Assembly: GCA_965207385.1 (NCBI GenBank)
Contig: CBDBLZ010000017.1
Span: forward strand, 65,090-129,089
DNA length: 64,000 bases
Origin: Rhodothermales bacterium
Lineage (GTDB): Bacteria > Bacteroidota > Rhodothermia > Rhodothermales > Bin80
Direction: 5' to 3'
Shown here: positions 5,586-20,314 of the stretch, piece by piece
Layout: the number at the start of each line of letters is the position of its first letter
How positions within the stretch are numbered: position 1 is the stretch's first letter
The notes under the pieces: generated by a model
Databases searched by the model: none
What the model saw: the letters and a program-made list of their open reading frames with translations, nothing else
What the model was told of the DNA's origin: nothing
Translations under genes and position numbers: made by a program

Positions 5586-5610
5586 CCGGCCGGCCAGGTC
5601 GCGGCGTGCG

Positions 5611-6084
5611 TCAGCGGTCGCCGCTATCCTGCTCCACGCAAGACGCCAGGTAGGACCGAATGCCGGCAAAAACCTCCCGCCAACCCTTGACGCACGCGTC
5701 GTGGAAATCATCCGCCTCGGGCCCCATCGGAAACCCGCGCTGCGTCACGCGAAGGAGCGTGCCGGACCCTTCTGCCTCCAGATCAAAATCAATTTCGAAG
5801 CGCGCTTCGAACGGAAGAGGCCCCGGTCTGCCGTAGTAATAGTGATCGGCCAACCCCAAGTGGCTTGGCGCCTTGAGTTCCCGGATCGACGTTACCGTAA
5901 CGTATTCCGGCGCGTCCTCGTCCTCTCCCCAGGCGACGGCATACCTTCCGCCTTGCTGCGGAACGACGATGGCAGAAGCAGCACTCCACCATATGCGTAT
6001 GGCGCTGGGCCGGAGCAGCACCGAAAAAAGCAGATCGGGTGTCGCATCAAATGATTCCTGGTGCCGTAGCGTACGCGTATCCAT
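5611..6084 (-). CDS. SRPBCC/AHSA1 (activator of Hsp90 ATPase homologue-like) family protein
   Basis: 157-aa ORF. The pattern FDATPDLLFSVLLRPSAIRIWW...LLRVTQRGFP...DACVKGWREVFAGIRSYL is typical of the START-like AHSA1 domain. Confidence 0.65.
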   Translation of the reverse strand: MDTRTLRHQESFDATPDLLFSVLLRPSAIRIWWSAASAIVVPQQGGRYAVAWGEDEDAPEYVTVTSIRELKAPSHLGLADHYYYGRPGPLPFEARFEIDFDLEAEGSGTLLRVTQRGFPMGPEADDFHDACVKGWREVFAGIRSYLASCVEQDSGDR

Positions 6085-6914
6085 TTGTATTGCAGGCTGA
6101 ATGTTCGGGACTCAAAGATAATCGTCGGCCGGTATTCCCAGACAACTGACCCGAAGATAACCGGATTCGACGCTAGCGGCGAGACTTGGATGAGGCGCCT
6201 CGCCGAATCCGACCGCTCAGGCACGGGCAAGCGGCAACGTCAGCCCGAAGCACGCCAGGCGGCCGATCTTGTGCCAGCTCGCCCCCTCCGGAGAAGAAGG
6301 GACCATACCGCAGCTGCAGCTTGCAAGAAGGCTACCCGCACGGACCCCTGGAGAAGCGACCGGGCGCTTTCGACGGAAAATCAGAGTATTGTTCGCGTGC
6401 TAAGCCCCGATGGACCATAACGCATGATTTCGGTTGAGTCCGGAGCTGCCGCCATATCCAGCCGCGCGCTTGCCGATCGCAGAGCCGGCTAACGCAAGAC
6501 CTGGTTGCGGCTGCTCCTGCCTTCCCGGTCGCTTCTCCACAGGTCATCCTTGTGATTGCAAGATACGGGTTCGCGGCTTTCGGAATCAGCACACCTGATC
6601 GACGGTGCAGAGATTGACGGCGTCCTTTGCGAGGTCAAGGCCGCTCCCCTGCTGTCAGTCGTTCTCGAGATTTGCGCATCCACCTGCAGGCACCCGCTTG
6701 AGGTGGCCCTCATCCATTGATTCCCGGGACCACCGCCCATGCACCTTCCGCGGAATCGGCTCTAGTGCCGGGCATCATGTGCTCAGCGAGCGATACGGAT
6801 TCCCGAGCCAGACCCGGACAAAATCGAACAATCGGGGCCGATAACATCCAGCCCGCGGTTTCATTGCGACCCGATTCAGGCGCCGCCAAATTCGCCCTTC
6901 ACGGGCAATGGGCC

Positions 6915-7454
6915 CTACGCGACATCGAACAGGTCGGTTTGCCCCCTCGTGATTCTCGCCATGACCTGGGCGTGCGTCAACATCCTTCCCCCCTCATCGA
7001 CGTGCGAGACGGCGACGCCCCGTTTGTCCAGCTCCTTGCCGATCAGCTTGCTGCGGTGGCACCGCTCCGGTCTTAGTTCGCTGCACAGGAGCGCAATCCG
7101 AATTCCCCGCCCGGCAGCCGCCATCACACGCTCCAGTCCCAGCAAAAACTCCGGCCTTCCGGCAAGAATGCCATAGCTCACTTTGCCATGGACATAACAG
7201 TCCGCATCATCCGGCCTCCCGCCCAGGAATGCACCCATGAACGCGTACCGCAGACCAGCCTCACGCAGCAGGCGTTCGAGGGACGCCTTCCTGAAATCGG
7301 GATTGAATCGGGAATAAGGCATCGATCGTACATCGAAAACATGTCCAACCCCATGCAAGTGCAGCAGAGCGACCATCTCCTGGGCAGTCCTGTTGCCATA
7401 TCCGATCGTGCATACGAGACCGGAGTCTGCGGAGTCGCTCATGCCGCGCTCCAA
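6915..7454 (-). CDS. DUF488 family protein
   Basis: 179-aa ORF. TIGYGNRTAQEMVALLHLHGVGHVFDVRSMPYSRFNPDF and LLCSELRPERCHRSKLI match the DUF488 pattern. Confidence 0.75.
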   Translation of the reverse strand: MERGMSDSADSGLVCTIGYGNRTAQEMVALLHLHGVGHVFDVRSMPYSRFNPDFRKASLERLLREAGLRYAFMGAFLGGRPDDADCYVHGKVSYGILAGRPEFLLGLERVMAAAGRGIRIALLCSELRPERCHRSKLIGKELDKRGVAVSHVDEGGRMLTHAQVMARITRGQTDLFDVA

Positions 7455-7569
7455 TACTGTGCCTGGATGAGTGCGCCCGCTACGCGGCAGCGCCGCTCAG
7501 CAGGAAGGAGGCGATTTTCCACACCCTTTACCCGCCGTTGCATGGAAGCGGCACCCTGGCGATTCGTGA

Positions 7570-8040
7570 CTACATGCCCAGGCTACTCTTCACCTCATCC
7601 AACAATTGCGCGTCAATTGCTGAGTGGCCGCGCTGCCGGGCAAACGATTCGATCTGCCTGCGCACCGAGGCCCGCACAAAGTCCGGAATGGCCGCCAGTC
7701 GCGCTTCGGCTTCGGCCGTCCAGGCGGGCGCACCCGACATGTTGTCTGCCGCCGCTACAACGCCGGTAAACGGGCACTTCGAGCCCGCCGCGGGCTCTGG
7801 ATTCCCCTTGCCCGTGGCAAGCGACGAGCGGAGCATTTCCATGGGCTTAGCCTCCTCGGGACGACCCCCGATCTTGACACCCAGGGAGCGCACCATCTGG
7901 GTCTCCATCCTGTTGGTCAGCATGGCCATATCCCGGCTGCAGGAGGGGCATCGATACACAATGGACATGCTGCCATCCTCCGGCCCCAGAGCATTCTCGA
8001 GCAGCATGGGCTCGTCACAGGGTATACAAAGAAACTTCAT
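7570..8040 (-). CDS. zinc-ribbon protein with a C-terminal PCP_red-like domain; last gene of the cydA-like operon
   Basis: 156-aa ORF. The N-terminus is CIPC...CPSC. The C-terminus is PAWTAEAEARLAAIPDFVRASVRRQIESFARQRGHSAIDAQLLDEV. Its start overlaps the upstream stop by 4 nt. Confidence 0.7.
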   Translation of the reverse strand: MKFLCIPCDEPMLLENALGPEDGSMSIVYRCPSCSRDMAMLTNRMETQMVRSLGVKIGGRPEEAKPMEMLRSSLATGKGNPEPAAGSKCPFTGVVAAADNMSGAPAWTAEAEARLAAIPDFVRASVRRQIESFARQRGHSAIDAQLLDEVKSSLGM

Positions 8041-8945
8041 GGGCTTGCAACTTCGCTTTCGACCAACTCCTGCTGCACGGCCTGCCCGATACGTTCGTAT
8101 GCTAGCGCAGCCATGCTGCCAGCTGCCTGGTCAAAGAATGATATGCCTTGATCCGCGCAGGAACGGATCCGCTTGTCAAACGGAACGGCCCCCAGATAGG
8201 GTAAGCCATTCGCAGCTGCAAATTCTTCAGAACCGCGCGCGGAGCCGAACAGCGTCTCCAAACTGCCGCATCGGGAGCAGCAGAAATGACCCATGTTGTC
8301 TACGAGGCCGAGCATGCGGACGCGGCACGCGTCCGCAGCCATGGTGATTGAGCGCCCGACCACCAGATGCGAAACATCGCTTCCGACAGTCACCGCTAGT
8401 GCACCAGAAAGTCCCGGAACCAGCTCCGCCAGATTGGCCAGCCTGTCGCCGCCAGGCGGAAGATCTACCAGCAGCACATCCAGACTGCCCCATTCGGTAT
8501 CCGCCAGCATCTCGCGAAGCGCGCCCATTTCCACCATGGGGCGCCACGCATACGCACCTGTCTGCGTGGGCGCCCGCCATAGAACAGGCGAGGTATCCTC
8601 CAACAGAAACAGGTCCATGGACATGACCCGAATACCCAGTCTGGCGACTGCGGGCAACATGCCCGAAGATCCGGCGCGAGGAGAATGACTCCGGACGCCT
8701 GTCATCTTGGGAATCGAGGCGCCGTGAATATCTGCGTCCAGTATTCCAATCGCCTGCCCCTGTCGTGCGAGCACATCCGCCAGGTTTACGGTAAAGGTGC
8801 TCTTGCCGACTCCTCCCTTGCCGCTCATGACGGCGACGACGTGCCCAATATCTGCCAGACGCTGCTGCAGCTGACGCTGCTGTGCGCCAACCTGCGCCGC
8901 TACATCCGATCCCCCGTCCCCGGCGATATCATGGTAGGACTTCAA
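8037..8945 (-). CDS. Mrp/NBP35 (ApbC-type) P-loop ATPase, Fe-S cluster carrier family
   Basis: 302-aa ORF with a deviant Walker A (MSGKGGVGKSTFTVNLA), DLPPGGDR, and a CxxC pair (FCCSRCG). It has 4-nt overlaps at both ends. Confidence 0.85.
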   Translation of the reverse strand: MKSYHDIAGDGGSDVAAQVGAQQRQLQQRLADIGHVVAVMSGKGGVGKSTFTVNLADVLARQGQAIGILDADIHGASIPKMTGVRSHSPRAGSSGMLPAVARLGIRVMSMDLFLLEDTSPVLWRAPTQTGAYAWRPMVEMGALREMLADTEWGSLDVLLVDLPPGGDRLANLAELVPGLSGALAVTVGSDVSHLVVGRSITMAADACRVRMLGLVDNMGHFCCSRCGSLETLFGSARGSEEFAAANGLPYLGAVPFDKRIRSCADQGISFFDQAAGSMAALAYERIGQAVQQELVESEVASP

Positions 8946-10846
8946 GGCCCCGCCTGCTCGCGCATCATTTCCTCCATCAGCTTCAGTCCTTCCTTGATCC
9001 CCTCCTCAGTGATGCCAAGTGTAATCAGCGTGGTATTCCGGCCTTTCGCGACGGCCTGAACACGCTCCCTGGTGCGGTTTCGCATGAAGCCTTCCGGAAC
9101 CCGGTCGAGGCGCGCCTTGGCCTTGGGTGTCCACAGAAAATCGCCATCGGCTATGAGTTCGTCCGTAGCCGGGGCCGCTGGCGCATCCCGCGGTCCGTCG
9201 CCATTTGCACCGGGCGTCTTGAGCGAGCCCCGCTCGGACAGGTGCCTGGTCTCCTCGTACTGGACTTCCGTCACATCCAGCACCATCTGGCGCGTAATAG
9301 TCGGAACGCGCTGCACGCGCGCGCGCTTCTCGATCTGCGCCTTGGCGCGCCGCATCTGGTACCCGTCAGGAACCTTGCGCAATTCCTCCCTCGCATCCCT
9401 TGTCCACTTCAGCTTTACGTCGTCGAATGTGGCACTCTCCCTGACACCACCTTCCAGCTGCCGGAGCTGCTCTATGGCCTGCTTATCCAGCTTCTGGAAC
9501 GCCTCCCGCGCCGATCCGCACACTGCGCAGCGTACCGGTTCAAAATCACGGGCTGCATAGCCGCACTGCGCGCATATGTAGGTCACGGAATCAGAGGCCC
9601 GAATCTCTTCGGCCGCCGCATCCTCGGCAACTATGCCCATCTTGACCATAGAAGACCGGGGCAGGATGTTGCCCATAGCCTGCTCTACGATCTTGCGCGT
9701 TATGACGCTGTGGCCCCGCTCCATGGCCCACCTGTGAATCGTGGTCCGCGCTATGCCACGCGCAAAATCCGGCGCCGTATTCAAGAGTCGCGTTGCCGGC
9801 TCCGTCCATAGCATCGACGCTTCGGCCGCCACGTCCACGGGCGGCGTAAACCGCTGACTCGAAAGCAATATGTTGCACGGCGCCTGCCGAAGCAGGTTTT
9901 CCGTGTTGCTGCCGATGTCCATGTCGGTGTCGCTGTGCACGCCAATGCGGCCGAGCACCAGGAGCCAGGGCTGTTCGCGGCGCACGTACTGGAGCAACTT
10001 CTCGAAGGCCTTGCCGTCCAGCAGCGTAATCTTGAGGTCCGCTCCTTCTTCCTCGGCAATTTGCCGCGCCACCTCCAGGTGAGACTGGTAGATCTTCGCC
10101 AGGCCCGTATCGATTACTTCCTCGTGCAGCTGTTCCTGCTCCTTGAAGCGAAATACCTTGGATGCCTTCTCGGTGAGCACGTTCACGATGCTGTTGAACA
10201 TCGCATAGTGCAGGTACGGGTCATACACCGATACCGCTTCAACCTGCCGGCCCGTGGCGCGTCCAAGCTGCAGCGCCGTCCTGAGGCCCGCGAAAGATTC
10301 CGGACTACCGTCGATGCCCACCACAATGGAGCCCTTCTCGAGGCTCTTTTCGGGCTCCAGCCGCTTGATCACCAGCGTGTCCGTCCGCACGCGGCGGGTA
10401 ACGCGCTCGCAGACGCTGCCTAGCACACTGTCCTTGACCGCTCCGAGGCCCAGGGCGCCCAAAACGACCAGATCATAGCCGCTGTCTTCGATGTCCTTGA
10501 CAATGACCTTCCAGTTCTTGCCGTCATACATTTTGGGTTCAAAAGGCACACCCGCTTCGCGACAACGCTGGTCGGCAACCACGAGATAGGAATCGGAAAT
10601 CAGCTCCAGGCCCATCGTGATCAGCGTGTCATGAATCTTGCGCTGCTTCTCCATGGCATCTTCCAGCAGATACTCCTCCGGAAGCGTGTACTCCATTTGC
10701 TTGAACCGGTAGTCATGCATGCGCGCAGCGTAGGCATGGCTGCCGGTAATCGAAGCGCCAAACTCCCTGGCGAGCTCGACGGCCATGTCCACGGCGCAAA
10801 TCGAATGCTCCGAATTGTCTACCGGAACGAAAATATTCTTGTACAT
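8942..10846 (-). CDS. multidomain protein: USP-USP, PCP_red-like, CxxC-x11-CxxC zinc ribbon, PCP_red-like, PCP_red-like
   Basis: ORF 8942..10972 trimmed to MYKNIFVPVDNSEHS (ATG at 10846). Two universal-stress-protein-like halves (VVLGALGLGAVKDSVLGSVCERV; LVLGRIGVHSDTDMDIGSNTENLL) come first. Then follow WTEPATRLLNTAPDFARGIARTTIHRWAMERGHSVIT, YICAQCGYAARDFEPVRCAVCG, WTRDAREELRKVPDGYQMRRAKAQIEKRARVQRVPTIT and WTPKAKARLDRVPEGFMRNRTRERVQAVAKGRNTTLIT. Confidence 0.7.
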   Translation of the reverse strand: MYKNIFVPVDNSEHSICAVDMAVELAREFGASITGSHAYAARMHDYRFKQMEYTLPEEYLLEDAMEKQRKIHDTLITMGLELISDSYLVVADQRCREAGVPFEPKMYDGKNWKVIVKDIEDSGYDLVVLGALGLGAVKDSVLGSVCERVTRRVRTDTLVIKRLEPEKSLEKGSIVVGIDGSPESFAGLRTALQLGRATGRQVEAVSVYDPYLHYAMFNSIVNVLTEKASKVFRFKEQEQLHEEVIDTGLAKIYQSHLEVARQIAEEEGADLKITLLDGKAFEKLLQYVRREQPWLLVLGRIGVHSDTDMDIGSNTENLLRQAPCNILLSSQRFTPPVDVAAEASMLWTEPATRLLNTAPDFARGIARTTIHRWAMERGHSVITRKIVEQAMGNILPRSSMVKMGIVAEDAAAEEIRASDSVTYICAQCGYAARDFEPVRCAVCGSAREAFQKLDKQAIEQLRQLEGGVRESATFDDVKLKWTRDAREELRKVPDGYQMRRAKAQIEKRARVQRVPTITRQMVLDVTEVQYEETRHLSERGSLKTPGANGDGPRDAPAAPATDELIADGDFLWTPKAKARLDRVPEGFMRNRTRERVQAVAKGRNTTLITLGITEEGIKEGLKLMEEMMREQAGP

Positions 10847-10919
10847 GAGACCTCCTGGCACCTCGCGCGGCCTTGTCATACCGCCAAGTCCGACGAATGT
10901 GGCAATGGTATGGGACTTG

Positions 10920-11258
10920 TCAGTAGATGTAGGCCATGCGCTCCTGCACGTAGTTGAGTCTGTCCATGACATAGCTCAGCTCGGCGCTGTCCATTTCGCC
11001 GTGCACCAGCGCTGTTGCAAGAATCGCTGAAGCCAGGTGACGCGAGCAGCCGGATACCTCCTGGAGGCGCGCCCTGGCGACGCAGTCGACAAATCTCCGA
11101 AGCTCAAATCTGGCCCTGACCAGAGTATTGCGCTGTTCGACGGCGAGGTCCGGCTTCTCGAGAATGCCGGCGAGTCGCGTGATCTCCAGGGCCAGAATGG
11201 AGGGCGTCATCTGCTGAAACTCCTTCCAGCTCAGGAACTGGATTTCATTTTCAACCAT
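10920..11258 (-). CDS. hypothetical small, probably helical, protein
   Basis: ORF 10920..11321 trimmed to MVENEIQFLSWKEF (ATG at 11258). This start overlaps the ferredoxin stop by 1 nt (TGATG). Confidence 0.5.
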   Translation of the reverse strand: MVENEIQFLSWKEFQQMTPSILALEITRLAGILEKPDLAVEQRNTLVRARFELRRFVDCVARARLQEVSGCSRHLASAILATALVHGEMDSAELSYVMDRLNYVQERMAYIY

Positions 11259-11446
11259 CACACATTCTCCGTCTCCTCTTCGACCGCTACGATGGCATCG
11301 AACTCGCACATCACCAGACATTCTTCAAAGTCGCAGCACGTGTCATCAATCACGTAGACGGGATCGCCCTCGGAAATGGCCGATATAGGACACACGTCGA
11401 TGCACATGTCGCACGCCGTACAAGCTTCGGTAATCGTATACGGCAT
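11258..11446 (-). CDS. small 4Fe-4S ferredoxin
   Basis: 62-aa ORF with CTACDMCIDVCP (CxxCxxCxxxCP) plus a second Cys cluster, CCDFEECLVMCE. It lies 5 nt downstream of the radical SAM gene. Confidence 0.8.
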   Translation of the reverse strand: MPYTITEACTACDMCIDVCPISAISEGDPVYVIDDTCCDFEECLVMCEFDAIVAVEEETENV

Positions 11447-11451
11447 GGCTG

Positions 11452-12687
11452 CTAGACGAGGTGCTTCGGGGCCTCAATCTCTGCCGCCTCCTGGACAAAG
11501 CGGCTGTTTCGCGTCATGCCGGAAAGCGCGCCCGTCATCACAGCCGTGGTGATGCAAGAGAGTCCGTGCCGCTCTGCGTATGCTTCCACGCCCTTGCGCG
11601 TCTTTTCGCGGATGAAGGCGATGGGAATGCGTTCCAGCCGCCGGAGCGCAGGCTCGCCCCAGACCATCGCCGTCTTCGGCAGTGACCTCCCCGCGGGCTG
11701 GTACCTGCAGGCAGGATCCTCCTCCAGATAGTCTCCCGTCATGGCATATGCTCGGCACCGACAGCCCCCGCAAATCTCCTTGAACTCGCAGACCCCGCAG
11801 CGACCCTTGAGGCGGCCTGCGTCACGCAGATCGCGGAAAACCGGTGAATTCTCCCAGATGTCCGTAAACGACCGCTCAAGAACGCTGCCTCCCACCGCAG
11901 TCATGTACGGACACGGGGTAACGTCCCCCTCCGGCGTGATGCGACAATACTGGGTTGCCGCCATGCATCCTCCACTTTCGAGGCCGGCCAGTCCCCTGTC
12001 GTAGGCGATCTGCTTGAACTGCGGCGCACACTTGGAGCGCACCAGCATCGGTCTGTAGTCATCCTGCATGTCGACCAGGCGCTCAAGCATAGCCTCCGTC
12101 CGCGCTGCCTTCAGTTCAGACATGCCCTGACCCCGGCCCGTCTGCACCAGGAAGTACAGGTTGAAAGCCCAGGCTCCCTTTTCTCTTGCAAACGAGAGCA
12201 ATGCGGGGATTTCGTCGTAGTTCTCCTCCATGACGGTCGTCTGCACGAGAACCTCGAGACCGTGCCTGCGGCACGTGTCGATGGCGCGCACGCTGTGCTG
12301 CCAGGCATTTGGTCCGCCGCGAAAGCTGTTGTGCCGCTCAGGATCGATGGAGTCGATGCTGATGCCCACACCCTTTATGCCACAATCGACCATCCGGCCT
12401 GCTACACGGTCGGTTACCAGGACGCCATTGGTGCCCATGACCACCCAGATGCCCTTCCCGGAGGCCCGCTCGGCGATCGCAAAGATATCCCGACGAAGCA
12501 GCGGCTCCCCGCCCGTCAGGATCAACATCTCCGTGCCGAGCGCCTCCATCTCGTCCAGGAGACGGAGACACTCCTCCGTGGTCAGTTCACGCTCCGCCTT
12601 GCGCCCTGCCGACATGTAGCAGTGCGGACAGCGCAGGTTGCACTTCTTGGTCAGATTCCAGGAGATGAGGGAAGGCTTGTACTTCAC
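11452..12687 (-). CDS. radical SAM / SPASM-domain enzyme with a C-terminal PCP_red-like domain (NirJ/AhbD-like architecture)
   Basis: ORF 11452..12897 trimmed to the in-frame GTG at 12687 (V/M-KYKPSLISWNLTKKCNLRCPHCY, i.e. CxxxCxxC). It has LTGGEPLLRRD and GTNG, SPASM cysteines CGVCEFKEICGGCRC, and the tail VWGEPALRRLERIPIAFIREKTRKGVEAYAERHGLSCIT. The longer ORF would overlap the upstream gene by 180 nt. Confidence 0.8.
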   Translation of the reverse strand: MKYKPSLISWNLTKKCNLRCPHCYMSAGRKAERELTTEECLRLLDEMEALGTEMLILTGGEPLLRRDIFAIAERASGKGIWVVMGTNGVLVTDRVAGRMVDCGIKGVGISIDSIDPERHNSFRGGPNAWQHSVRAIDTCRRHGLEVLVQTTVMEENYDEIPALLSFAREKGAWAFNLYFLVQTGRGQGMSELKAARTEAMLERLVDMQDDYRPMLVRSKCAPQFKQIAYDRGLAGLESGGCMAATQYCRITPEGDVTPCPYMTAVGGSVLERSFTDIWENSPVFRDLRDAGRLKGRCGVCEFKEICGGCRCRAYAMTGDYLEEDPACRYQPAGRSLPKTAMVWGEPALRRLERIPIAFIREKTRKGVEAYAERHGLSCITTAVMTGALSGMTRNSRFVQEAAEIEAPKHLV

Positions 12688-12716
12688 AGCGCTGGTAGCG
12701 GCAATGACACGCGCTG

Positions 12717-14255
12717 CTAGACCTTCCTTTGGCGCCACCGAACCAGGCCAATCAGCCCGATCTCGACAAGCAGCACGACAAGCGCCCATGTGGCCATGGG
12801 GCCCGCTGCAGAAGTGGTCTCCAGTGGCGCCAGGTACACGTGATACCAGGCAGACAGTCCGCGCTTGTTGCCGCGCTCGCCACTCGCGCCGTCCCATACA
12901 GAGAACGAGACGGGCGTAAAGGCGCTCTCGGCGAAATATAGCCCGCTTGGCCGCTCGCGCGCGCCCTTGAAGATGACGGTCCAGACGCCGTCACCATACT
13001 GCAGGTAATGCTCAAGTACCTCGTCTGACTCCGCTATGGAGCCCGACCCCGACCCGATGAGAACTTGCGCCTCTTCTGCTGCCATGTCGGCAAACCAGAT
13101 GGCCATGGGGTTCCTGTCGTCCCCAAACATGAAATAGGGGCGCTCGAGTCCCTCGGGTGTGGTGGCGGGCAATAGCAGGGCCACGGCGTCGGAATACAAC
13201 AGGCTGTCGGGGGCCGCCGTTGAATCAAACGGCGGCACCGCCATGGCCGGATGGTTCGAACCTGTTGCCTCAGCCGTCATGTCGTGCCACGAGAGCATGA
13301 AGGCAATGTCATCCTCGTTGTAGACGGCACTGACCGAAACGCCGTTTACACCGGGATAGAAGGACCGGCCCGGCTCAATGACCTGTGCCACGATGGGGAA
13401 ATAGGCCGTCGGGGCACCGTCAAAGAGCGCCGGCCCGCGCGTGATATCAAGCTCCTCGCTGAGGCCCAGACCTTCCACCACCGTTCCGTATTCGGGCTCA
13501 TCGCGCGATAGTGACCACACGTAGTCTACCAGCGCCCAGCGGTCCTCCTCCTCGATCGTCTGGGCATAGGAAGGCATCGGAGTGCCGTTTAGCCCCGTGG
13601 TAAACGTGCGGTACACGTCTTCGCGCGTCGGGCTCGCCCGGAATGTCCAGCGCTTGGTCAGGTCAGCCGGACGGATGGGGTATCCCCAATCGTCCACGAG
13701 ATCCGGTGCGGAAAACCCGTTTGCGCGACCGTTGTCACCGTGGCAGTCGGCGCACTGGTTGGCTTCGTACACTTCGCGTCCTCGCTCCAGCCTGCCCTCG
13801 TCAAAGGGCGGGGCATCGGGCACCTCCATTACCTGGGGCGTACCGTAGGGACCGGCAAAGGCCGGCTCGAAAGTCTTGATGTAGTATGCCAGATTGGTGA
13901 TCTCCGACTCGCTCAGGATTCCCTCCCAGGCCGGCATGCTGGTATAGGGCATGCCCAGGCGTATGCTGCGCGCAATGTCCTCCGTGGTCGGAAGCTCACC
14001 ACTGGCCGTGGAGCGAAACTTGAAGTTTCCCGAAGCAAAATCGCGCGGCGTCGGGCGCACGTACTGCGTTGCCACGGCCACTGCATCCCCTTCGGAGCCG
14101 TGGCAATGGGCACACTTAGCATCATACACCTCCTTGCCGGCAGAGCGCTGCTGCTCAGTACCCAGGTCGGGTTCCTGGGCAAACGCCACGGACGCCCACA
14201 ACAGCGCGCCAAATGCTAGGGCGGCAGTCCTCATGGTGCCATATCTCCTCATCAA
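12717..14255 (-). CDS. dihaem cytochrome c fused to an EB_dh/DOMON-like domain (tentative), with a C-terminal TM anchor
   Basis: 512-aa ORF with a signal peptide (AFGALLWASVAFAQE), CAHCH and CADCH sites, and MPAWEG. The C-terminal half is beta-rich (SVSAVYNEDDIAFMLSWHD...VSFSVWDGASGERGNKRGLSAWYHVYL). The final segment is hydrophobic (WALVVLLVEIGLIGLV). The start overlaps the upstream stop by 4 nt. Confidence 0.7.
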   Translation of the reverse strand: MMRRYGTMRTAALAFGALLWASVAFAQEPDLGTEQQRSAGKEVYDAKCAHCHGSEGDAVAVATQYVRPTPRDFASGNFKFRSTASGELPTTEDIARSIRLGMPYTSMPAWEGILSESEITNLAYYIKTFEPAFAGPYGTPQVMEVPDAPPFDEGRLERGREVYEANQCADCHGDNGRANGFSAPDLVDDWGYPIRPADLTKRWTFRASPTREDVYRTFTTGLNGTPMPSYAQTIEEEDRWALVDYVWSLSRDEPEYGTVVEGLGLSEELDITRGPALFDGAPTAYFPIVAQVIEPGRSFYPGVNGVSVSAVYNEDDIAFMLSWHDMTAEATGSNHPAMAVPPFDSTAAPDSLLYSDAVALLLPATTPEGLERPYFMFGDDRNPMAIWFADMAAEEAQVLIGSGSGSIAESDEVLEHYLQYGDGVWTVIFKGARERPSGLYFAESAFTPVSFSVWDGASGERGNKRGLSAWYHVYLAPLETTSAAGPMATWALVVLLVEIGLIGLVRWRQRKV

Positions 14256-15079
14256 TGCGGCATGCCCTGAGCGCGCGGCTCAAAGCCGGTGTATTCGTAA
14301 AGAAAAATGATCACGTCCCAGATTTCCTCCTCCGTCAGGAATAGCTCCCAGGCCGGCATGGCGCTCGACCATGGCGTGGACTCCGACGGCAGTCCGGGCG
14401 CTCCCTTGGCAATGCGCCAGAACAGATAGGATTCCTGCAGCATGGCGATGGTGGTGGCATCATTGAAGTTTGCCGGAATGGGATCATATCCGTGTGCAAA
14501 CATGCCCGCTCCTTCCATGTTGTCGCCGTGGCAGTAGAAGCAGTTCTGGAAGTATATGCGGCGCCCGTTCAGGACGTGACGCTCAAAAGCCTCCGGATCC
14601 GACGTCTCGAGCTCCCGGTAGGGATTGACTTCCGTGGCGAGGTTGATCGACCTGCCCTGGAAATTGATGGATCCGGGCGGCGGCGGGTGTATGGTGCGAG
14701 CACTGACAGGCGGCTGTGGCGGCTGCGACATGTCGGAGTAGACCTTGAGCGCCGCAAACAACGGAAGTGCCAGCGTCACCATGAGCAGCGACCAACGGTA
14801 CTTGGGAAGGACGAGGAAATTGACGGCGGAAGTCCGGGCCGAGGCCAGCTCTTCCACGTCGGCTGCCAGGTACGTTGCAAGCGCGAGCGTGATGATCGCC
14901 ATGAAAAGCACGATGATCGAGCTTGGAAGCGGAGGATTGACGCCGAAGCTGAGCCCCAGATACACGGCAGCCCACCATAGGGCAATCCACGCAAGGCGGT
15001 TCAGCTTCAGCCACCGGGTTACCACCAGCTGGATCAGAACCAGTGCAGCGGCAATGCCAAGTACGACTAGCGTATTCAT
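14252..15079 (-). CDS. membrane-anchored monohaem cytochrome c
   Basis: 275-aa ORF with about four N-terminal hydrophobic helices, then CFYCH and SSAMPAWE. Confidence 0.75.
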   Translation of the reverse strand: MNTLVVLGIAAALVLIQLVVTRWLKLNRLAWIALWWAAVYLGLSFGVNPPLPSSIIVLFMAIITLALATYLAADVEELASARTSAVNFLVLPKYRWSLLMVTLALPLFAALKVYSDMSQPPQPPVSARTIHPPPPGSINFQGRSINLATEVNPYRELETSDPEAFERHVLNGRRIYFQNCFYCHGDNMEGAGMFAHGYDPIPANFNDATTIAMLQESYLFWRIAKGAPGLPSESTPWSSAMPAWELFLTEEEIWDVIIFLYEYTGFEPRAQGMPH

Positions 15080-15088
15080 GTAGCCTGC

Positions 15089-15883
15089 CTATAAGGCAGC
15101 CAGGTAGTCGATCAGAATCTGCAATTCTGCCGCCGAGACCTGCTCATGAAACGAGGTCGCGGTCATCATGGCTGACATGACGCCTGCGGCAAACCCCTCC
15201 GTTACGGTCGCGTCCGGGTCCACGATGGATTCGTACAACTCGCCACGGCTCAGCCGACTGCCAACGCCTGCCAGCGTGGGACCGGCACCGACAGCGCCAT
15301 CCAGCGTGTGGCAGGTGTTGCACAGATACGCCGTGAAGAGGGTCTCCGCATCGCGCGGCTCACCCGCTGCCACTGCCGCAGTCGGAGCCGCTGCGGGCGC
15401 GATCTGGCCTTGCCATTCCAGTTCGGTGTCCATGGTCACCGACGGCGTGCCGCCAAGCGACTGCAGATAGGCGATGACAGTCAGAATCTCCGTGTCCGTC
15501 AGTGATATCGGCGGGCGCGCAACGTTGGGCATGCCGGCCACAAAACCCTCCACGACGTAGGCGTTGGGATCGTACATGGACTCCGCCAGATAAACGACGT
15601 CGCTTACTCCTTCCTCCCGCTCGGCAGCGATGGCGCCGATGCCAGCCAGGTCAGGAAAACGGAGCCCCGTCCCGGATTCGCCTACGGTGTGGCATGTCAG
15701 GCACGTTCCCTTGCCCGCTGCAATTTCCTGGCCTACGGCCACCATTTCCTCCGTAGTAAGATTGGCGCCGATCACGATATCCTCGGGCGGATCCGTTCGC
15801 TTCTGCGGTACCCACAGACTGACGTACCAGTAGAAGGCCGATACGATGATCGTAAAGCCGAATATTTGAAGGGCGTGTTTCAC
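15089..15883 (-). CDS. membrane-anchored dihaem cytochrome c
   Basis: 264-aa ORF with an N-terminal TM helix (IFGFTIIVSAFYWYVSLWV) and CLTCH and CNTCH sites. Confidence 0.8.
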   Translation of the reverse strand: MKHALQIFGFTIIVSAFYWYVSLWVPQKRTDPPEDIVIGANLTTEEMVAVGQEIAAGKGTCLTCHTVGESGTGLRFPDLAGIGAIAAEREEGVSDVVYLAESMYDPNAYVVEGFVAGMPNVARPPISLTDTEILTVIAYLQSLGGTPSVTMDTELEWQGQIAPAAAPTAAVAAGEPRDAETLFTAYLCNTCHTLDGAVGAGPTLAGVGSRLSRGELYESIVDPDATVTEGFAAGVMSAMMTATSFHEQVSAAELQILIDYLAAL

Positions 15884-15916
15884 TGCTACTGATGCCTGGC
15901 AGCCGAGGGCTTCGTC

Positions 15917-17647
15917 CTACGCCGGTTTGGGTGCCCACTTCTTCTTGGACGAAAGTCCCGTCAGGAAGAAGACGATGGCAATGAAAAGGAAGAAAATGAT
16001 GACGGTAACCGAAACCACCAGGCCGGCATAGCCAAGCGTGGGAGTAAAGGCGTCCACGGACGTGTCCCTGATGACCCCGTATACGTGCCAGTGCTGCCGC
16101 ATCCCGGCGCGCACATACCCCATCAGACCCATCGTCCACGCGAACGTAATGGCCAGGAAAAACAGCGCATACTGGGACATCGGGGAGATCTTGCCCCAGG
16201 CAATCTCTCCCTTCTTGTCCGCGCCCCGGAAGAGGAAAATGTCAATGACGGTCACGGAAATCATGGCGAAGAGCACCGACATGACCTGCGGCTGCGAAAG
16301 TCCGATCCGCGTCTGGGCATCGACAAAATACCCGTAGACCCCCAGGAAGACCACGAAGATGACCACGATGGCAAAGATGCCAAACTGGATGAGATTGCCG
16401 GCCCTGGCCCAGCTCACGGTGGCGACCTTGTTGGATCTCCGGTACAGCAGGAAGCTTACGTAGGTGGTGAGGATGAGCACGTTCACGGCCGTGTTCTTGG
16501 CCGACATCACGCCCAGTACGTTGAGTATTGGGTGGTGAGAGCCTCCCATGGCCCTGGCCTCCTCCACCGTGGCCACCAGCGAGTGAGGCGTGGCCCAGAC
16601 GATAAAGCACAGCGTGATGACCGCCAGAAGATATTTTATGAACTTTCGATACCGCTCCGCACCGCCGATTCGCCCCATGCTCAGCCACAGGTAGAAGTTG
16701 GCCGCCAGGAACAGATTGCCGATCAGCACGGCCTGTATGATGAACAGCCAGGAAAACGTGCCGCCCATGAGCGTAATGCCCAGGCTCTGATCGTAGGCGT
16801 AGATCTCCACACCGAGCCAGTACCCGGCAAATGGCAGCGGCAACAGGGCGCATATGGCAATGAAATTGCCGATGTAGCCCATCCAGTCATAATGCGCCTT
16901 TTCCTCCAGCGTCTTGGCGCCAAGAAACTTGTAGGCGCCGTAGGCCGCCCCGATGGCCCCGCCAAAGGCCATGTTGGCAATCAGCCGGTGGATGTTGATG
17001 GGCATCCATATGTAATTGTTGATGGCGTCCCAAACGCTCGTCAGATTGCCCAGCTCGTCTATGCCATTGGGCGTGTTCATGAAAGTGAGCCATCCGTTGG
17101 CGATGAACATGATGGCCGTGCCCACGATATTGAGCATCACCCCCAGGAAGAGGTGTACTCTGGGCGAGAATTTGCCCCATCCGTAATAGTAGGCGTAGAG
17201 GAAGAAGGCCTCCAGAAAGAACAGCAGGACGTACGGCAAAAAGGTCCAGCTGAAGATCTTTACCAGGTACTGGGTTAGCGCCGGATAAAAGACCATGAGG
17301 CCAAAGGTGAGCAGCGCACCCAGCGTGGCCGTAAATGAGAAGGAGACAGACAGCAGGCGTGTGAAATCATGCGCCAGTTCATCGAATCTCTTGTCACCGG
17401 TCTTGTAGCCGATGAACTCGATGACGATGGCGAACATGGGCACTGCAAGCACGAATGCCGCGAACATCAGGTGCAGCTCGGCCACGACCCACATGATGAC
17501 CCGGCTGCTGATGAACGGCAGTGCCCGATAGTCTCCCTCGCCCGCTGCCTCCTGGGGTCCGGCCCACGCGGCTTCGCCAGACAGCGCCGCCACAGCCAGC
17601 AAAAGAAGCCCTACGGGCAGTGCGCGAACAAGCCGGATGCGCATCAT
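15917..17647 (-). CDS. cytochrome bd subunit I (CydA)-like membrane haem protein; atypical, with no long Q-loop and no adjacent CydB
   Basis: 576-aa polytopic ORF. FFLEAFFLYAYYYGWGKFSPRVHLFLGVMLNIVGTAIMFIANGWLTFMNTP aligns by eye with E. coli CydA FFLESTFVGLFFFGW...LVANGWMQNP. Conserved His residues occur in AELHLMF and NIHRLIANMAFGG. Confidence 0.75.
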   Translation of the reverse strand: MMRIRLVRALPVGLLLLAVAALSGEAAWAGPQEAAGEGDYRALPFISSRVIMWVVAELHLMFAAFVLAVPMFAIVIEFIGYKTGDKRFDELAHDFTRLLSVSFSFTATLGALLTFGLMVFYPALTQYLVKIFSWTFLPYVLLFFLEAFFLYAYYYGWGKFSPRVHLFLGVMLNIVGTAIMFIANGWLTFMNTPNGIDELGNLTSVWDAINNYIWMPINIHRLIANMAFGGAIGAAYGAYKFLGAKTLEEKAHYDWMGYIGNFIAICALLPLPFAGYWLGVEIYAYDQSLGITLMGGTFSWLFIIQAVLIGNLFLAANFYLWLSMGRIGGAERYRKFIKYLLAVITLCFIVWATPHSLVATVEEARAMGGSHHPILNVLGVMSAKNTAVNVLILTTYVSFLLYRRSNKVATVSWARAGNLIQFGIFAIVVIFVVFLGVYGYFVDAQTRIGLSQPQVMSVLFAMISVTVIDIFLFRGADKKGEIAWGKISPMSQYALFFLAITFAWTMGLMGYVRAGMRQHWHVYGVIRDTSVDAFTPTLGYAGLVVSVTVIIFFLFIAIVFFLTGLSSKKKWAPKPA

Positions 17648-18138
17648 AGACGGTCAATCGGAAAGAGCCGCACCAAAACAACTGCCTGCCATGGACATTG
17701 TCAAGGCAATCCGCACCGGCTCTGAACCCATGAATATCTGTCTGAGACCAACTTTGGCAAAATGTACGAAGCAGCCGGAACCCCGTTCGACCGGTGGGCC
17801 ATATAATAGTGCGTCATAGTCGGAAGCAGGAGTGAATTTTTTTGTTGCTGCCATAGCGGCACTCCTTTTGCCGGCAGCGTTTTGCCTGGCAGTCTGGGGA
17901 GGTGTGTCCCTGCTCAAGCGGATACACCGGAAGGGCCATGCGCTGCGTGCGCTTCCTGTGCCGAGAAAGATCGCTGTCGCCGCGCGTGCCCGGGTCACCG
18001 AGCCGGAGTCGGACGACGGGCCTTGGCCCGATTACACGTATGATTCGGGCATATCGCGCGGCTTTCCGGAAGCATGGGAAGAGGATTTGTTGCTCAGGCG
18101 CAACTAAATTAGCCCCTAACCAGACGGGCACATCCACT

Positions 18139-19305
18139 ATGTTGCAGCGGCTCATCGCCAGGCTGGATGCGTACAGGGAAGTTGCCTTTGACCTGATTCG
18201 CATCTACCTGGGCATCGGGCTCTTTGTCCGGGGCATTCTTTTCGCCTACGATTCCGACGCCTTTGTCGCGCTGCTGCCGACGGGTGCGCCCGCCTGGCTT
18301 ACGCTTTCGTGGGTGCTGACTACCGTGGCGTTCGTCCACATGCTCGGCGGACTGCTGATCGCGGTGGGCTACTGGACGCGCTTCGCCACGCTGGCCCAGA
18401 TTCCAATATTGTTTGGCGCCGTTTTTATCAGCATCGGCGGTCTGTTCTCGCCAGACCAGTCGTTCGAGCTTTCCGCCCTGGTACTTCTGCTACTCGTACT
18501 GGTGCTCATATGCGGCTCCGGAAAGTGGTCCGTTGACTATGCCATTGGAGAGCGCAGGCCATCCATTCAGATCGCCCTTGACCGGATAGCCGAGTACCGG
18601 AATACGGCATTCGATGTCTTGCGGATGTACCTCGGGGTGGCGCTGTTTGTCCGCGGCGTGGTCTTTATTTCCGACGCAGGCGCATTCATGGCCCTTCTCG
18701 GCAATGACTCCGCGGGATTCTTGCAATCCTCCGTCCTGGTGCATTACGTGGCGCTGGGCCACGTATTCGGCGGCTTTATGATGGCGGCTGGACTGCTGAC
18801 GCGCGTGGCGGCATTGGTGCAGATTCCCATTCTCGTAGGTGCCGTCGCTGTCAGCCAGGTGCAGGGCGGTCTCATGGCGGGCACCCAGGGCTTCGAGATC
18901 TCGGCCCTTACCCTGTTTTTGCTGGTCCTGGTGCTGCTGTATGGATCCGGCCAGTGGTCTGCCGACCATTACCTGCTGCGGCGGCCAGCGCCCGCTACCA
19001 GGCGGGAACGTACGGAGCGTGCAACGGAAATACTCTCGCACGACGTGCCGGAGGAGGGTCCCTTCGTGGATCCGGTAGAGATACTGGCCGTACCCGAAGC
19101 CAGAACGGACGCTGCCCTTGCCGCAGCGCTGAAAGACAACCCGCTGGTGGTCACACACGCGCGCTATCCCTTCTGGGGTTGGCTGCTCTTTCTGCTGGAC
19201 GTGACCCCGCGCCCTCGGGAGGTCATCTTCCGGCACATGAAAACGGGGAAGATCATAAAGCGCAGCAAAGATCCTGACGTGCTGCGCCAGTTCCGGTATC
19301 GGTAG
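18139..19305 (+). CDS. tandem DoxX-family membrane protein with a C-terminal soluble extension
   Basis: ORF 17902..19305 trimmed to MLQRLIARLDAYREVAFDLIRIYLGIGLFVRG (ATG at 18139). A second copy of the same pattern follows (IAEYRNTAFDVLRMYLGVALFVRG). Confidence 0.65.
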   Translation: MLQRLIARLDAYREVAFDLIRIYLGIGLFVRGILFAYDSDAFVALLPTGAPAWLTLSWVLTTVAFVHMLGGLLIAVGYWTRFATLAQIPILFGAVFISIGGLFSPDQSFELSALVLLLLVLVLICGSGKWSVDYAIGERRPSIQIALDRIAEYRNTAFDVLRMYLGVALFVRGVVFISDAGAFMALLGNDSAGFLQSSVLVHYVALGHVFGGFMMAAGLLTRVAALVQIPILVGAVAVSQVQGGLMAGTQGFEISALTLFLLVLVLLYGSGQWSADHYLLRRPAPATRRERTERATEILSHDVPEEGPFVDPVEILAVPEARTDAALAAALKDNPLVVTHARYPFWGWLLFLLDVTPRPREVIFRHMKTGKIIKRSKDPDVLRQFRYR

Positions 19306-19357
19306 CGCCGGCTGCTGCCGGCCATGTCATGGCTAATCTCCGCAAGCTGCAGTAGCG

Positions 19358-20314
19358 ATGAGAATCACCGAGATACTGGACCGGGCGAAGGACCCGCTCA
19401 TCTCCTACGAGATCATCCCTCCCGTTCGCGGCAGCTCGGCCGATCAAATCATGGCCGTCGTCGAAGATCTGATGCCGTTCGATCCTCCCTTTATTGACGT
19501 AACCAGCCATTCGGCAGAAGCACACTACGAGGAATTACCCGACGGCACGTGGCGGCGCAGGGTCAAACGCAAGAGACCCGGCACCATTGGCATCTGCGCT
19601 GCCATCCGGAGCCGCTTCGGCGTCGAAACAGTGCCGCACATCCTCTGCCACGGCTTTACCCGCAGCGAAACCGAGGATGCGCTGATTGAACTGAACTACC
19701 TGGGTATCAATAACGTGATGGCGCTCCACGGCGATGACACGGGCTTCCAGAAGACCGTGCCGCCCGGCACGGGAGTCAACACGGCTGCCATTGATCTCGT
19801 GCGCCAGATCGGTGCCATGAACCAGGGCCGCTACCTCGAAGAGCTCATGGATGCGAAGCCGACGGACTTTTGCATTGGCGTAGCCGGATATCCCGAGAAG
19901 CACTTCAAGGCGCCAAATCTTACCTGGGACATCCTGTATCTGAAGAAAAAGGTCGATGCAGGTGCCCATTACATCACCACGCAGATGTTCTTTGATCCTG
20001 AGCACTACGTGGGCTTTGTCGAGCGATGCCGCGCCGTGAATATTGAAGTTCCAATCATTCCCGGCATCAAGGTACTGACAACCAAGAGGCATCTTCACCT
20101 GCTGCCGAGCCGGTTTCACGTGACGGTCCCCGAGGCGCTTGCGGCGGAGGTTGAAGAGGCGTCGCCAGAGCACGTGCGCGATGTCGGCGTCGAATGGGCG
20201 CTTCGGCAATGCGATGCGCTTATGTCGGCCGGCGCGCCGTGCATTCATTTCTACGTCATGCAGCAGTCCGGGCCTGTGCGCCGCGTTGTGGAGGGCTTGC
20301 GCAAGCTGGCCTGA
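19358..20314 (+). CDS. metF: methylenetetrahydrofolate reductase
   Basis: 318-aa ORF with SYEIIPPVRGSS, PFIDVTSH and YITTQMFFD, typical of MetF. Confidence 0.85.
   Translation: MRITEILDRAKDPLISYEIIPPVRGSSADQIMAVVEDLMPFDPPFIDVTSHSAEAHYEELPDGTWRRRVKRKRPGTIGICAAIRSRFGVETVPHILCHGFTRSETEDALIELNYLGINNVMALHGDDTGFQKTVPPGTGVNTAAIDLVRQIGAMNQGRYLEELMDAKPTDFCIGVAGYPEKHFKAPNLTWDILYLKKKVDAGAHYITTQMFFDPEHYVGFVERCRAVNIEVPIIPGIKVLTTKRHLHLLPSRFHVTVPEALAAEVEEASPEHVRDVGVEWALRQCDALMSAGAPCIHFYVMQQSGPVRRVVEGLRKLA

Follow-up and report, generated by a model that had tools for sequence, protein, structure and literature searches.

Ten genes lie head to tail on the minus strand of a 64,000-nucleotide stretch of DNA (the window) from a Rhodothermales bacterium (GenBank assembly GCA_965207385.1, contig CBDBLZ010000017.1, positions 65,090 to 129,089). 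Numbered g1 to g10 in the direction of transcription (Table 1), the co-directional open reading frames fill window positions 7570-17647. Their junctions, from g1 to g10, measure +33, +9, -4, +29, +5, -1, +73, -4 and -4 nucleotides, exactly as listed in an earlier note made from the sequence. The first four genes encode a CydA homologue and three cytochromes c; the other six encode a radical S-adenosylmethionine (SAM) enzyme with a PCP_red tail, a ferredoxin, an Mrp/NBP35 carrier and three further proteins, two of them with PCP_red domains. Start codons were chosen by homologue support: GTG 12687 for g5, whose raw reading frame extends in frame up to 12897, ATG 11258 for g7 and ATG 10846 for g8. 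Pfam and NCBIfam profile searches at curated thresholds confirmed the domain calls of the earlier note throughout, with one correction: g6 has eight cysteines in a pattern of the two-cluster type, not that of a single 4Fe-4S site.

Table 1. The ten genes of the cluster, with window coordinates (aa, amino acids; TM, transmembrane helix; USP, universal stress protein)
Gene	Product	Length (aa)	Position	Strand	Basis
g1	OR-N2-type CydA homologue, putative O2-reducing subunit	576	15917..17647	-	PF01654
g2	Membrane-anchored dihaem cytochrome c	264	15089..15883	-	two Cytochrom_C stretches
g3	Four-TM protein with C-terminal monohaem cytochrome c domain	275	14252..15079	-	PF13442, PF00034
g4	Dihaem cytochrome c with EbdC-like (EB_dh) haem b domain and C-terminal TM	512	12717..14255	-	PF13442/PF00034 x2, PF09459
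g5	AhbD-type radical SAM/SPASM enzyme with C-terminal PCP_red	411	11452..12687	-	PF04055 + PF13186 + PF08369
g6	8-Cys ferredoxin, likely redox partner of g5	62	11258..11446	-	Fer4-type matches
g7	Predicted four-helix-bundle protein	112	10920..11258	-	AlphaFold2
g8	Tandem USP, PCP_red, rubredoxin-like CxxC...CxxC knuckle, two PCP_red	634	8942..10846	-	Usp x2, PCP_red x3
g9	Mrp/NBP35 (ApbC-like) P-loop Fe-S cluster carrier	302	8037..8945	-	PF10609
g10	Cys4 zinc-ribbon/rubredoxin-like knuckle, K-C-P-F-T-G, PCP_red	156	7570..8040	-	PCP_red

The four upstream genes are of a known kind and, to judge from their sequences, form an OR-N2-type cytochrome bd-like oxidase operon. The match of g1 to PF01654 covers profile positions 2-240 of 418 (E 4.6e-24), the N-terminal half; beyond profile position 240 the protein has no Pfam match. 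His59 of g1 aligns with His21 of the Geobacillus CydA 5doq_A (His19 in E. coli), Tyr139 and Glu146 with Glu101 and Glu108 of the same protein, and His220 with a histidine of the CydA chain 9r2g_A that we take to be the haem b558 ligand, at the E. coli His186 position. These four residues fit the pattern tabulated for OR-N2, with histidine at H186, tyrosine at E99 and glutamate at E107 (Murali et al. 2021, supplementary table 6). A crude hydropathy scan of g1 gives 12 hydrophobic segments, three of them long enough for two helices, or about 12-14 transmembrane helices in all. It is the sole CydA-like gene in the 64 kb window, in which neither a second such gene nor a CydB was found.

The cytochromes complete the picture. 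The g2 protein, whose gene adjoins g1 in all related loci, has CxxCH motifs at residues 61 and 188 behind an N-terminal transmembrane helix (7-25). In g3, four hydrophobic segments within residues 1-115 precede a cytochrome domain at residues 171-260 with its CxxCH at 180, and g4 combines two CxxCH motifs with an EB_dh domain (44.3 bits; cut-off 33.3) and a transmembrane helix at 483-508. The g4 protein also matches the gamma subunit family of DMSO-reductase type II enzymes (TIGR03477, E 2.4e-17). The cytochrome bd superfamily has been divided into qOR, OR-C and OR-N (Murali, Gennis and Hemp 2021), and the OR-N2 operon type consists of a CydA homologue, multiple cytochromes c and an EbdC homologue (Murali et al. 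2021). We assign g1-g4 to OR-N2 because both the operon content and the signature residues match that published description. Recent genome papers treat OR-N enzymes as still uncharacterised putative O2 reductases, and O2 reduction by OR-N2 is accordingly called putative here.

The radical SAM gene g5 belongs, as the earlier note had proposed, to the NirJ/Ahb group of enzymes that tailor tetrapyrroles. Its best NCBIfam models, both matched over full length, are NirJ2 (TIGR04055, 345.7 bits) and AhbD (TIGR04545, 306.5 bits). NirJ follows with 217 bits, and the peptide maturases MftC and PqqE reach 160 and 147 bits, so that the tetrapyrrole models score about twice as high as any maturase model. 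Assignment as NirJ or AhbC is ruled out by the lower scores and by the absence of nir or ahbAB genes nearby, and assignment as anSME by a weak match of 37 bits. The radical SAM motif C16-x3-C20-x2-C23 (CX3CX2C) and the eight SPASM cysteines, C220-x20-C241-x17-C259-x37-C297-x2-C300-x5-C306-x2-C309-x17-C327, are invariant in an alignment of 12 homologues. This spacing fits the full SPASM motif of AhbD, CX20-33CX17CX36-37CX2CX5CX2CX17-35C, defined for the Methanosarcina and Desulfovibrio enzymes (Fix et al. 2023, PMC10452713). Neither AhbD nor NirJ has a structure in the PDB, where PqqE and SkfB come closest to g5. At the C-terminus of g5 lies a PCP_red domain (35.3 bits), which also matches the C-terminal domain of BchB (2kru), and the three-domain architecture of Radical_SAM, SPASM and PCP_red is present in all 120 of the 120 best homologues. 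On these features and on its gene context in relatives (see below), g5 is most probably an AhbD-type haem b synthase: a coproheme decarboxylase that would need no O2 and that belongs to a new subfamily, marked by PCP_red.

The ten-gene arrangement is widely conserved. Relatives of g5 turned up in 529 genomes when one genome per species was scanned; the best-scoring 80 served as synteny loci and were compared with all ten window proteins. The well-flanked set consists of the 45 loci that extend 6.5 kb or more to both sides of g5: an OR-N2 CydA is present in 38 of them, the Usp, Mrp and zinc-ribbon/PCP_red genes together in 41, and an OR-N2 or haem-copper oxidase likewise in 41. Rhodothermales loci keep all ten genes in order, and in one uncultured Rhodothermaceae genome (L004) the proteins are, one by one, 88-98% identical to those of the window; this locus and matches from named organisms point to a Rhodothermaceae source, and a look-up of the exact g1 sequence gave no record. 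The ferredoxin is the only gene missing in Calditrichota, Latescibacterota and Marinimicrobia. Myxococcota-type loci are rearranged, with g5 on one strand and g10-g9-g8-g4-g3-g2-g1 on the other; all partners are kept, and the CydA is about 52% identical to g1. When the search was anchored on g1 instead, g5 stood directly after g4 in each place found (Rhodocaloribacter litoris, a KSB1 metagenome-assembled genome and two metagenome contigs). With the same order in dozens of genomes, a chance run of co-directional genes is ruled out. Both g1 and g5 have more than 7,700 database matches each at E<=1e-10 and are about 70-75% identical across phyla. Neighbourhoods anchored on either gene thus bear out the expectation that the two halves of the cluster would be co-conserved, even after rearrangement.

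Two further observations concern this conservation. Identity in g1, g5 and g8 runs at about 65-80% between Rhodothermales, Chloroflexota, Myxococcota, Latescibacterota and others, which points to horizontal transfer of the cluster, to very strong constraint or to a combination of the two. In R. litoris (CP076718.1), an IS605 OrfB/TnpB-type gene (L001:15447-16607) lies precisely at the g4-g5 boundary of a cluster that otherwise keeps all ten genes intact and offers a natural test of whether the two halves need to be co-transcribed.

The function of g5 is best read from its neighbours in relatives. In a Myxococcota locus (L036), SCO1, ferrochelatase (284 bits), HemY and g5 stand back to back on one strand, and the grouping of ferrochelatase, HemY and g5 recurs in L044, L046, L056, L045 and L049; in L078, HemY comes immediately after g5. 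Two loci have haem-pathway genes and no oxidase genes beside them: in L080, ChdC, ferrochelatase and HemY lie near g5, from within 1 kb to a few kb away, and in L075 (Thermoanaerobaculia) ferrochelatase, HemY and a ChdC-like match lie about 3 kb downstream of it. The neighbouring HemY proteins pass TIGR00562 and resemble CgoX of B. subtilis (3i6d) more closely than PgoX of M. xanthus (2ivd), which is why we rejected them as protoporphyrinogen oxidases of the classical pathway. Ferrochelatase, a CgoX-like HemY and ChdC are the context of the coproporphyrin-dependent pathway, and g5 stands in the place of ChdC or beside it. Reviews have noted AhbD in organisms of this pathway that have no other Ahb genes and have proposed it as an anaerobic substitute for ChdC. 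It is this gene context in relatives that we regard as decisive for reading g5 as a haem b synthase.

We therefore lean, with somewhat better than even confidence, towards a single operon in which an OR-N2 oxidase shares its expression with a haem b synthase that works without O2 and with the reductant and Fe-S loader of that synthase, and in which PCP_red adaptors link haem output to oxidase assembly. Such an operon would couple a respiratory enzyme to the last step of its own cofactor supply. The products of g1-g4 would form a cytochrome c-fed terminal oxidase, in which five haems c and the EbdC-like haem b domain would pass electrons to a CydA homologue. This homologue retains both haem ligands, His19 and His186; it would have no quinol site, and no CydB accompanies it. 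The complex would carry at least eight haems. The products of g5-g10 would make up a cytoplasmic haem module. Within it, g5 would oxidatively decarboxylate two propionates of Fe-coproporphyrin III to vinyl groups, giving haem b without O2 or H2O2, a step that is the job of ChdC in the aerobic coproporphyrin-dependent pathway. The g6 ferredoxin would supply or remove electrons, and g9 would load the three [4Fe-4S] clusters. The g8 protein, an ATP-binding tandem USP with a knuckle, and the g10 protein, with its zinc ribbon and Cys-Pro motif, share PCP_red with the tail of g5 and may act as adaptors that couple the supply of haem to the building of the haem-rich oxidase at the membrane. The pairing would make sense at low O2, where a high-affinity oxidase would be needed exactly when O2-dependent haem synthesis fails. 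What the sequences show directly is the gene content, the domains, the Cys motifs and the synteny; the substrate of g5, its partners and the physiology are inferred.

The earlier note had arrived at a different product, a modified haem or other cofactor for the upstream respiratory complex. On this reading g5 would make a d-like or otherwise new haem for the CydA-like oxidase, and the PCP_red proteins would carry or insert it. The tight operon of g5 and OR-N2 in at least five phyla agrees with that proposal, as do the position of g5 under the AhbD and NirJ2 cut-offs and the unique PCP_red tail present in all 120 best homologues. A precedent exists as well, since nirJ and other haem d1 genes sit with nirS, and the OR-N enzymes, being uncharacterised, could carry an unusual haem. 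The Cys motif of g5, however, is that of AhbD, and its position after ferrochelatase and a CgoX-like HemY, or beside ChdC, is the place of a haem b synthase; motif and context thus point to an ordinary haem b synthase of the AhbD type. The oxidase partner also varies. In Chloroflexota, genes for Usp-PCP_red, Mrp, Zn-PCP_red, the radical SAM-PCP_red protein and ferredoxin follow COX2-COX1-COX3-COX4-DUF420 on the same strand, an A-type haem-copper oxidase, and no CydA-like gene lies within 10 kb of these module loci. Together with a second OR-N1/OR-N2 clade that has no g5, described below, these points make a modified haem unlikely. They also speak against the related suggestion that the module is dedicated to the CydA-like complex: the Chloroflexota context and the rSAM-less (radical SAM-less) OR-N clade show that it is not specific to that protein.

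Haem-copper oxidase genes border the cluster in many loci of Rhodothermales, Latescibacterota and Marinimicrobia, and larger islands run from alternative complex III through caa3 and OR-N2 to the module, or from cbb3/CtaA through OR-N2 to the module. SCO1/SenC and CtaA genes are interleaved with OR-N2 and haem-module genes (L036:6805-7494; L166:4769-5566 and 9226-9798; L165:4004-5032), which marks those regions as oxidase-biogenesis islands. In the window itself, a partial COX1 at 5-1270 on the minus strand (PF00115, 402 bits; 48% identical to Chloroflexota COX1) lies about 6 kb beyond g10, so that an A-type haem-copper oxidase is near the cluster here too. An 80-aa protein consisting of an AsnC_trans_reg domain only (L084:2374-2616) is encoded between COX1 and COX3 of a Chloroflexota oxidase operon that the module follows; domains related to AsnC_trans_reg occur in the sirohaem decarboxylases NirDLGH/AhbAB.

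The second clade came from a metagenome scan with distant OR-N2-like sequences and is 46-48% identical to g1. It has two CydA paralogues, OR-N1 and OR-N2, followed by cytochromes like g2, g3 and g4; in its 38 long loci, no g5, g6, g7, g8 or g9 was found within 10 kb. A conserved upstream gene encodes a 164-aa Cys-rich protein with two PCP_red domains (E 7e-24) and without the K-C-P-F-T-G motif of g10. It stands beside DUF420 and O-methyltransferase genes, and two FGE-sulfatase-like genes lie between the CydA paralogues. Zinc-ribbon/PCP_red proteins thus track OR-N oxidases even where the radical SAM gene is absent. In full, the order in L112:1061-16088 is O-methyltransferase, DUF420, the two-PCP_red protein, a 363-aa unannotated protein, OR-N1, DUF3047, a 135-aa unannotated protein, the two FGE-sulfatase-like proteins, OR-N2 and three cytochromes c, with no radical SAM gene; similar clusters occur in about 30-60 metagenome loci (L089-L163). 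FGE-sulfatase-like genes 37-41% identical to those of this clade also lie just downstream of the ferredoxin gene in Chloroflexota (L050:~12350; L031:~11560-11640), and FGE-like proteins recur round such clusters.

The variety of partners raises the question of whether g5-g10 are simply a general hypoxia or haem-housekeeping module, co-expressed with the oxidase and with no specific role in its assembly. Thermoanaerobaculia, where g5 keeps company with haem-pathway genes alone and no oxidase, fit this account, and so does an adjoining oxidase that may be OR-N2, A-type or a nearby cbb3. Tandem USPs are typical of hypoxia responses, and hemN adjoins cco and fnr genes in proteobacteria. Two observations pull the other way: g8, g9 and g10 track oxidase genes through rearrangements, and the zinc-ribbon/PCP_red gene stays with OR-N genes that have no radical SAM partner, which argues for an oxidase-directed role of at least that component. 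We consider a purely regulatory link distinctly unlikely.

A last alternative is that g5 is a SPASM protein or peptide maturase, which would introduce a cross-link or modified residue into an oxidase subunit or g7. SPASM enzymes are mostly maturases of this sort, the nearest structures (PqqE and SkfB) among them, and FGE-sulfatase-like proteins, aerobic protein modifiers encoded in the rSAM-less clade and after the Chloroflexota module, could hint at analogous chemistry. Yet the twofold advantage of the tetrapyrrole families over any maturase family, the weak anSME match of 37 bits, synteny with ferrochelatase, HemY and ChdC that would be hard to account for, and the absence of g7 from the Myxococcota and Chloroflexota versions leave this a highly improbable reading.

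The g6 protein matches FdxA_fam (44 bits), its motifs CtaC..C.d.CP and CcDF.eC...C are conserved in 40 homologues, and its gene comes after g5 in Rhodothermales and Chloroflexota loci. The g9 protein matches PF10609 (ParA/NUBPL, Mrp) with 229 bits and falls below the equivalog scores of MrpORP (216 against 450 bits) and ApbC (159 against 348 bits); its Walker A motif GKGGVGKS and a C..C motif are conserved in 56 homologues. With three clusters to fill, g5 is a plausible candidate client of this Fe-S carrier. The g8 protein is very strongly conserved, long insertions included, across 58 homologues. It contains two Usp domains (PF00582, 131 bits), three PCP_red domains (79.6 bits) and a weak match to RUBY_RBDX, and both Usp domains carry the ATP-type motif G-x2-G-x9-G-S, as GALGLGAVKDSVLGS and GRIGVHSDTDMDIGS. 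For g10 (PCP_red, 58.4 bits), at least 70-90% of 58 homologues retain MKFLC..C...CP.C and kCPFtg. The K-C-P-F-T-G stretch (residues 87-92, window 7777-7794) lies between the Cys4 ribbon and PCP_red and may resemble a haem-regulatory Cys-Pro motif. The g7 protein has no sequence match in Pfam, NCBIfam or the PDB. An AlphaFold2 model from 28 sequences has four helices (pLDDT 90.6) and found no PDB match at E<=0.001 by Foldseek. Its gene is present in 34 of the 45 well-flanked loci.

PCP_red joins three of these proteins. The recurring W..A..L..P.F motifs, which the earlier note had read as PCP_red-like, are genuine members of the family: g5, g8 and g10 all pass the gathering score of 32.5, and the profile also matches 2kru and 2l09. 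The note's further statement that the domain caps the protochlorophyllide pocket over-reads the literature. The BchB helix that contacts protochlorophyllide in trans has been reported as residues 398-420, and PCP_red covers about positions 452-511 of the 512-position BchB model. Since PCP_red lies past that helix, the term 'tetrapyrrole-binding adaptor' is an assumption. A broader conjecture, which we put forward as tentative, is that the zinc-ribbon/PCP_red proteins (g10, g8 in its C-terminal half, and the two-PCP_red protein of the clade without the radical SAM gene) could be unrecognised haem-handling assembly factors common to OR-N and haem-copper oxidases. Their partner in many phyla would be a dedicated haem synthase that is independent of O2, bears the PCP_red tag and passes new haem straight to the nascent oxidase.

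Several points weigh against the proposal of a haem b synthase operon built round an OR-N2 oxidase. The g5 protein misses the 500-bit equivalog cut-off of both AhbD and NirJ2 and is therefore treated as a separate though related subfamily and not classed as an AhbD equivalog; its substrate, coproheme, is a prediction. No CgoX, CpfC or ChdC was found in the window or in the Rhodothermales loci, which is as far as this search extended, and if Rhodothermales make haem via protoporphyrin, coproheme would be unavailable to g5. The second OR-N clade, having no g5-g9, shows that the oxidase family has no intrinsic need for g5. The 80 synteny loci, as the best-scoring of the 529, are biased to close relatives. 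Co-transcription of the ten genes is suggested by their spacing; a promoter and terminator scan of 6800-18300 gave counts not above those of shuffles and is uninformative on the matter. Finally, the roles suggested for g7, g8 and g10 derive from synteny, and the ligand of PCP_red is putative.

Two unannotated families accompany the cluster in relatives. A soluble protein of 257-267 aa is encoded directly downstream of g5 in 27 relatives (for example L002:16317-17090, L051:11296-12090, L165:15261-16064 and L166:16274-17047) and is 72-80% identical across phyla. It has no PDB or NCBIfam match, and 8 of 12 members weakly match PNPOx_N, an FMN-binding split barrel. The window and its closest relatives do not encode this protein, which may form an eleventh part of the module. 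In some Rhodothermales-type clusters an unannotated gene for about 195-230 aa stands between the ferredoxin gene and g7 (L051:12254-12952; L165:16670-17263; L166:17048-17629); in L166 it directly follows the gene for the 257-aa protein.

The flanks of the cluster in the window are unrelated to it, with DUF488, AHSA1 and AlkZ-like genes downstream and divergent DoxX and MTHFR genes upstream. The gene divergent from g1 (17902-19305, plus strand) encodes a 467-aa membrane protein with two DoxX domains and a very weak match (E 3e-4) to HvfX, a maturation family of copper-binding ribosomally synthesized and post-translationally modified peptides. An Rfam scan of 5000-20000 gave zero matches. For 22000-64000 the analysis covered an ORF list up to 34 kb and tblastn searches for extra CydA, haem-pathway and oxidase genes, which found none.

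The significance of the locus lies in the combination. The oxidase half and the enzyme class are already known kinds. In the literature available to us, we found neither the two halves in one conserved operon, nor a PCP_red tag on the synthase, nor the recurrent set of USP, Mrp and zinc-ribbon/PCP_red proteins. The literature available likewise contains no link between the six-gene module and bd-like oxidases; the claim that no characterised system has this composition therefore holds for the whole and gives way for g1-g4, which match OR-N2 (Murali et al. 2021). Nitrite oxidisers and many sediment and marine bacteria are believed to rely mainly on OR-N bd-like oxidases as their terminal oxidases, and the locus bears on how haem is supplied to and inserted into these enzymes. 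In g5 it also provides a concrete candidate, found in many genomes, for an enzyme long postulated in diderm bacteria: the anaerobic coproheme decarboxylase of the coproporphyrin-dependent pathway. The PCP_red/zinc-ribbon, tandem-USP and Mrp proteins are candidate assembly factors that track terminal oxidases of two unrelated superfamilies. For experiments, the whole cluster is available in R. litoris, a named species whose genome is complete.

Among known systems, the oxidase half is closest to OR-N2 as described by Murali et al. (2021). As in g1, conservation of that CydA is confined to the N-terminal haem-binding helices, the His19 and His186 equivalents are kept, and tyrosine and glutamate occupy the E99 and E107 positions. 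It is described with about 14 transmembrane helices and without a quinol site, features that g1 may share. Its operon, like that of the window, has no CydB and contains several cytochromes c and an EbdC homologue. The same description mentions no radical SAM, PCP_red, USP or Mrp partner, unlike what is seen in the window (Murali et al. 2021). In the Rhodothermales type one CydA goes with the six-gene module; the other clade sampled has OR-N1 and OR-N2 and no radical SAM gene. The PCP_red domains are homologous to the C-terminal domain of BchB/ChlB (PF08369; NMR structures 2kru and 2l09). In the tail of g5, the repeats of g8 and the C-terminus of g10, this domain stands apart from any nitrogenase-like fold.

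The proposed union of a tetrapyrrole radical SAM enzyme with its respiratory client in one operon has a counterpart in the nirS-nirJ clusters for haem d1, where nirJ is encoded with nirS and a gene of the NirJ/Ahb family is thus co-operonic with a haem respiratory enzyme. In contrast to those clusters, the window has no NirS, NirDLGH, NirF or NirN, and the context of g5 points to haem b, not haem d1. A second parallel is the linkage of hemN to ccoNOQP and fnr in proteobacteria. HemW, a radical-SAM-like haem chaperone, delivers haem to a membrane respiratory complex. Both cases connect high-affinity respiration with a radical SAM haem enzyme or chaperone that works without O2, as may be so here, but HemN and HemW belong to another radical SAM family (HemN_C), have no PCP_red, USP or Mrp partners and are neighbours of the respiratory genes, not members of one operon with them.

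The curated families nearest to g5 itself are NirJ2 and AhbD. The AhbD enzymes of Methanosarcina barkeri and Desulfovibrio vulgaris share with it the CX3CX2C motif and the full eight-cysteine SPASM motif at the published spacing. The g5 relatives, which adjoin CgoX-like HemY, ferrochelatase and ChdC, also resemble the AhbD-like proteins predicted in coproporphyrin-dependent bacteria in that other Ahb genes are missing. Unlike AhbD, g5 scores 306 bits (AhbD) and 346 bits (NirJ2) against a cut-off of 500, and it ends in a PCP_red domain of about 70 aa that the AhbD model does not have. A further difference is that g5 is found in diderm phyla (Rhodothermales, Myxococcota, Calditrichota and others) and within oxidase operons, where its predicted activity would put the last step of haem b synthesis next to one of its users.

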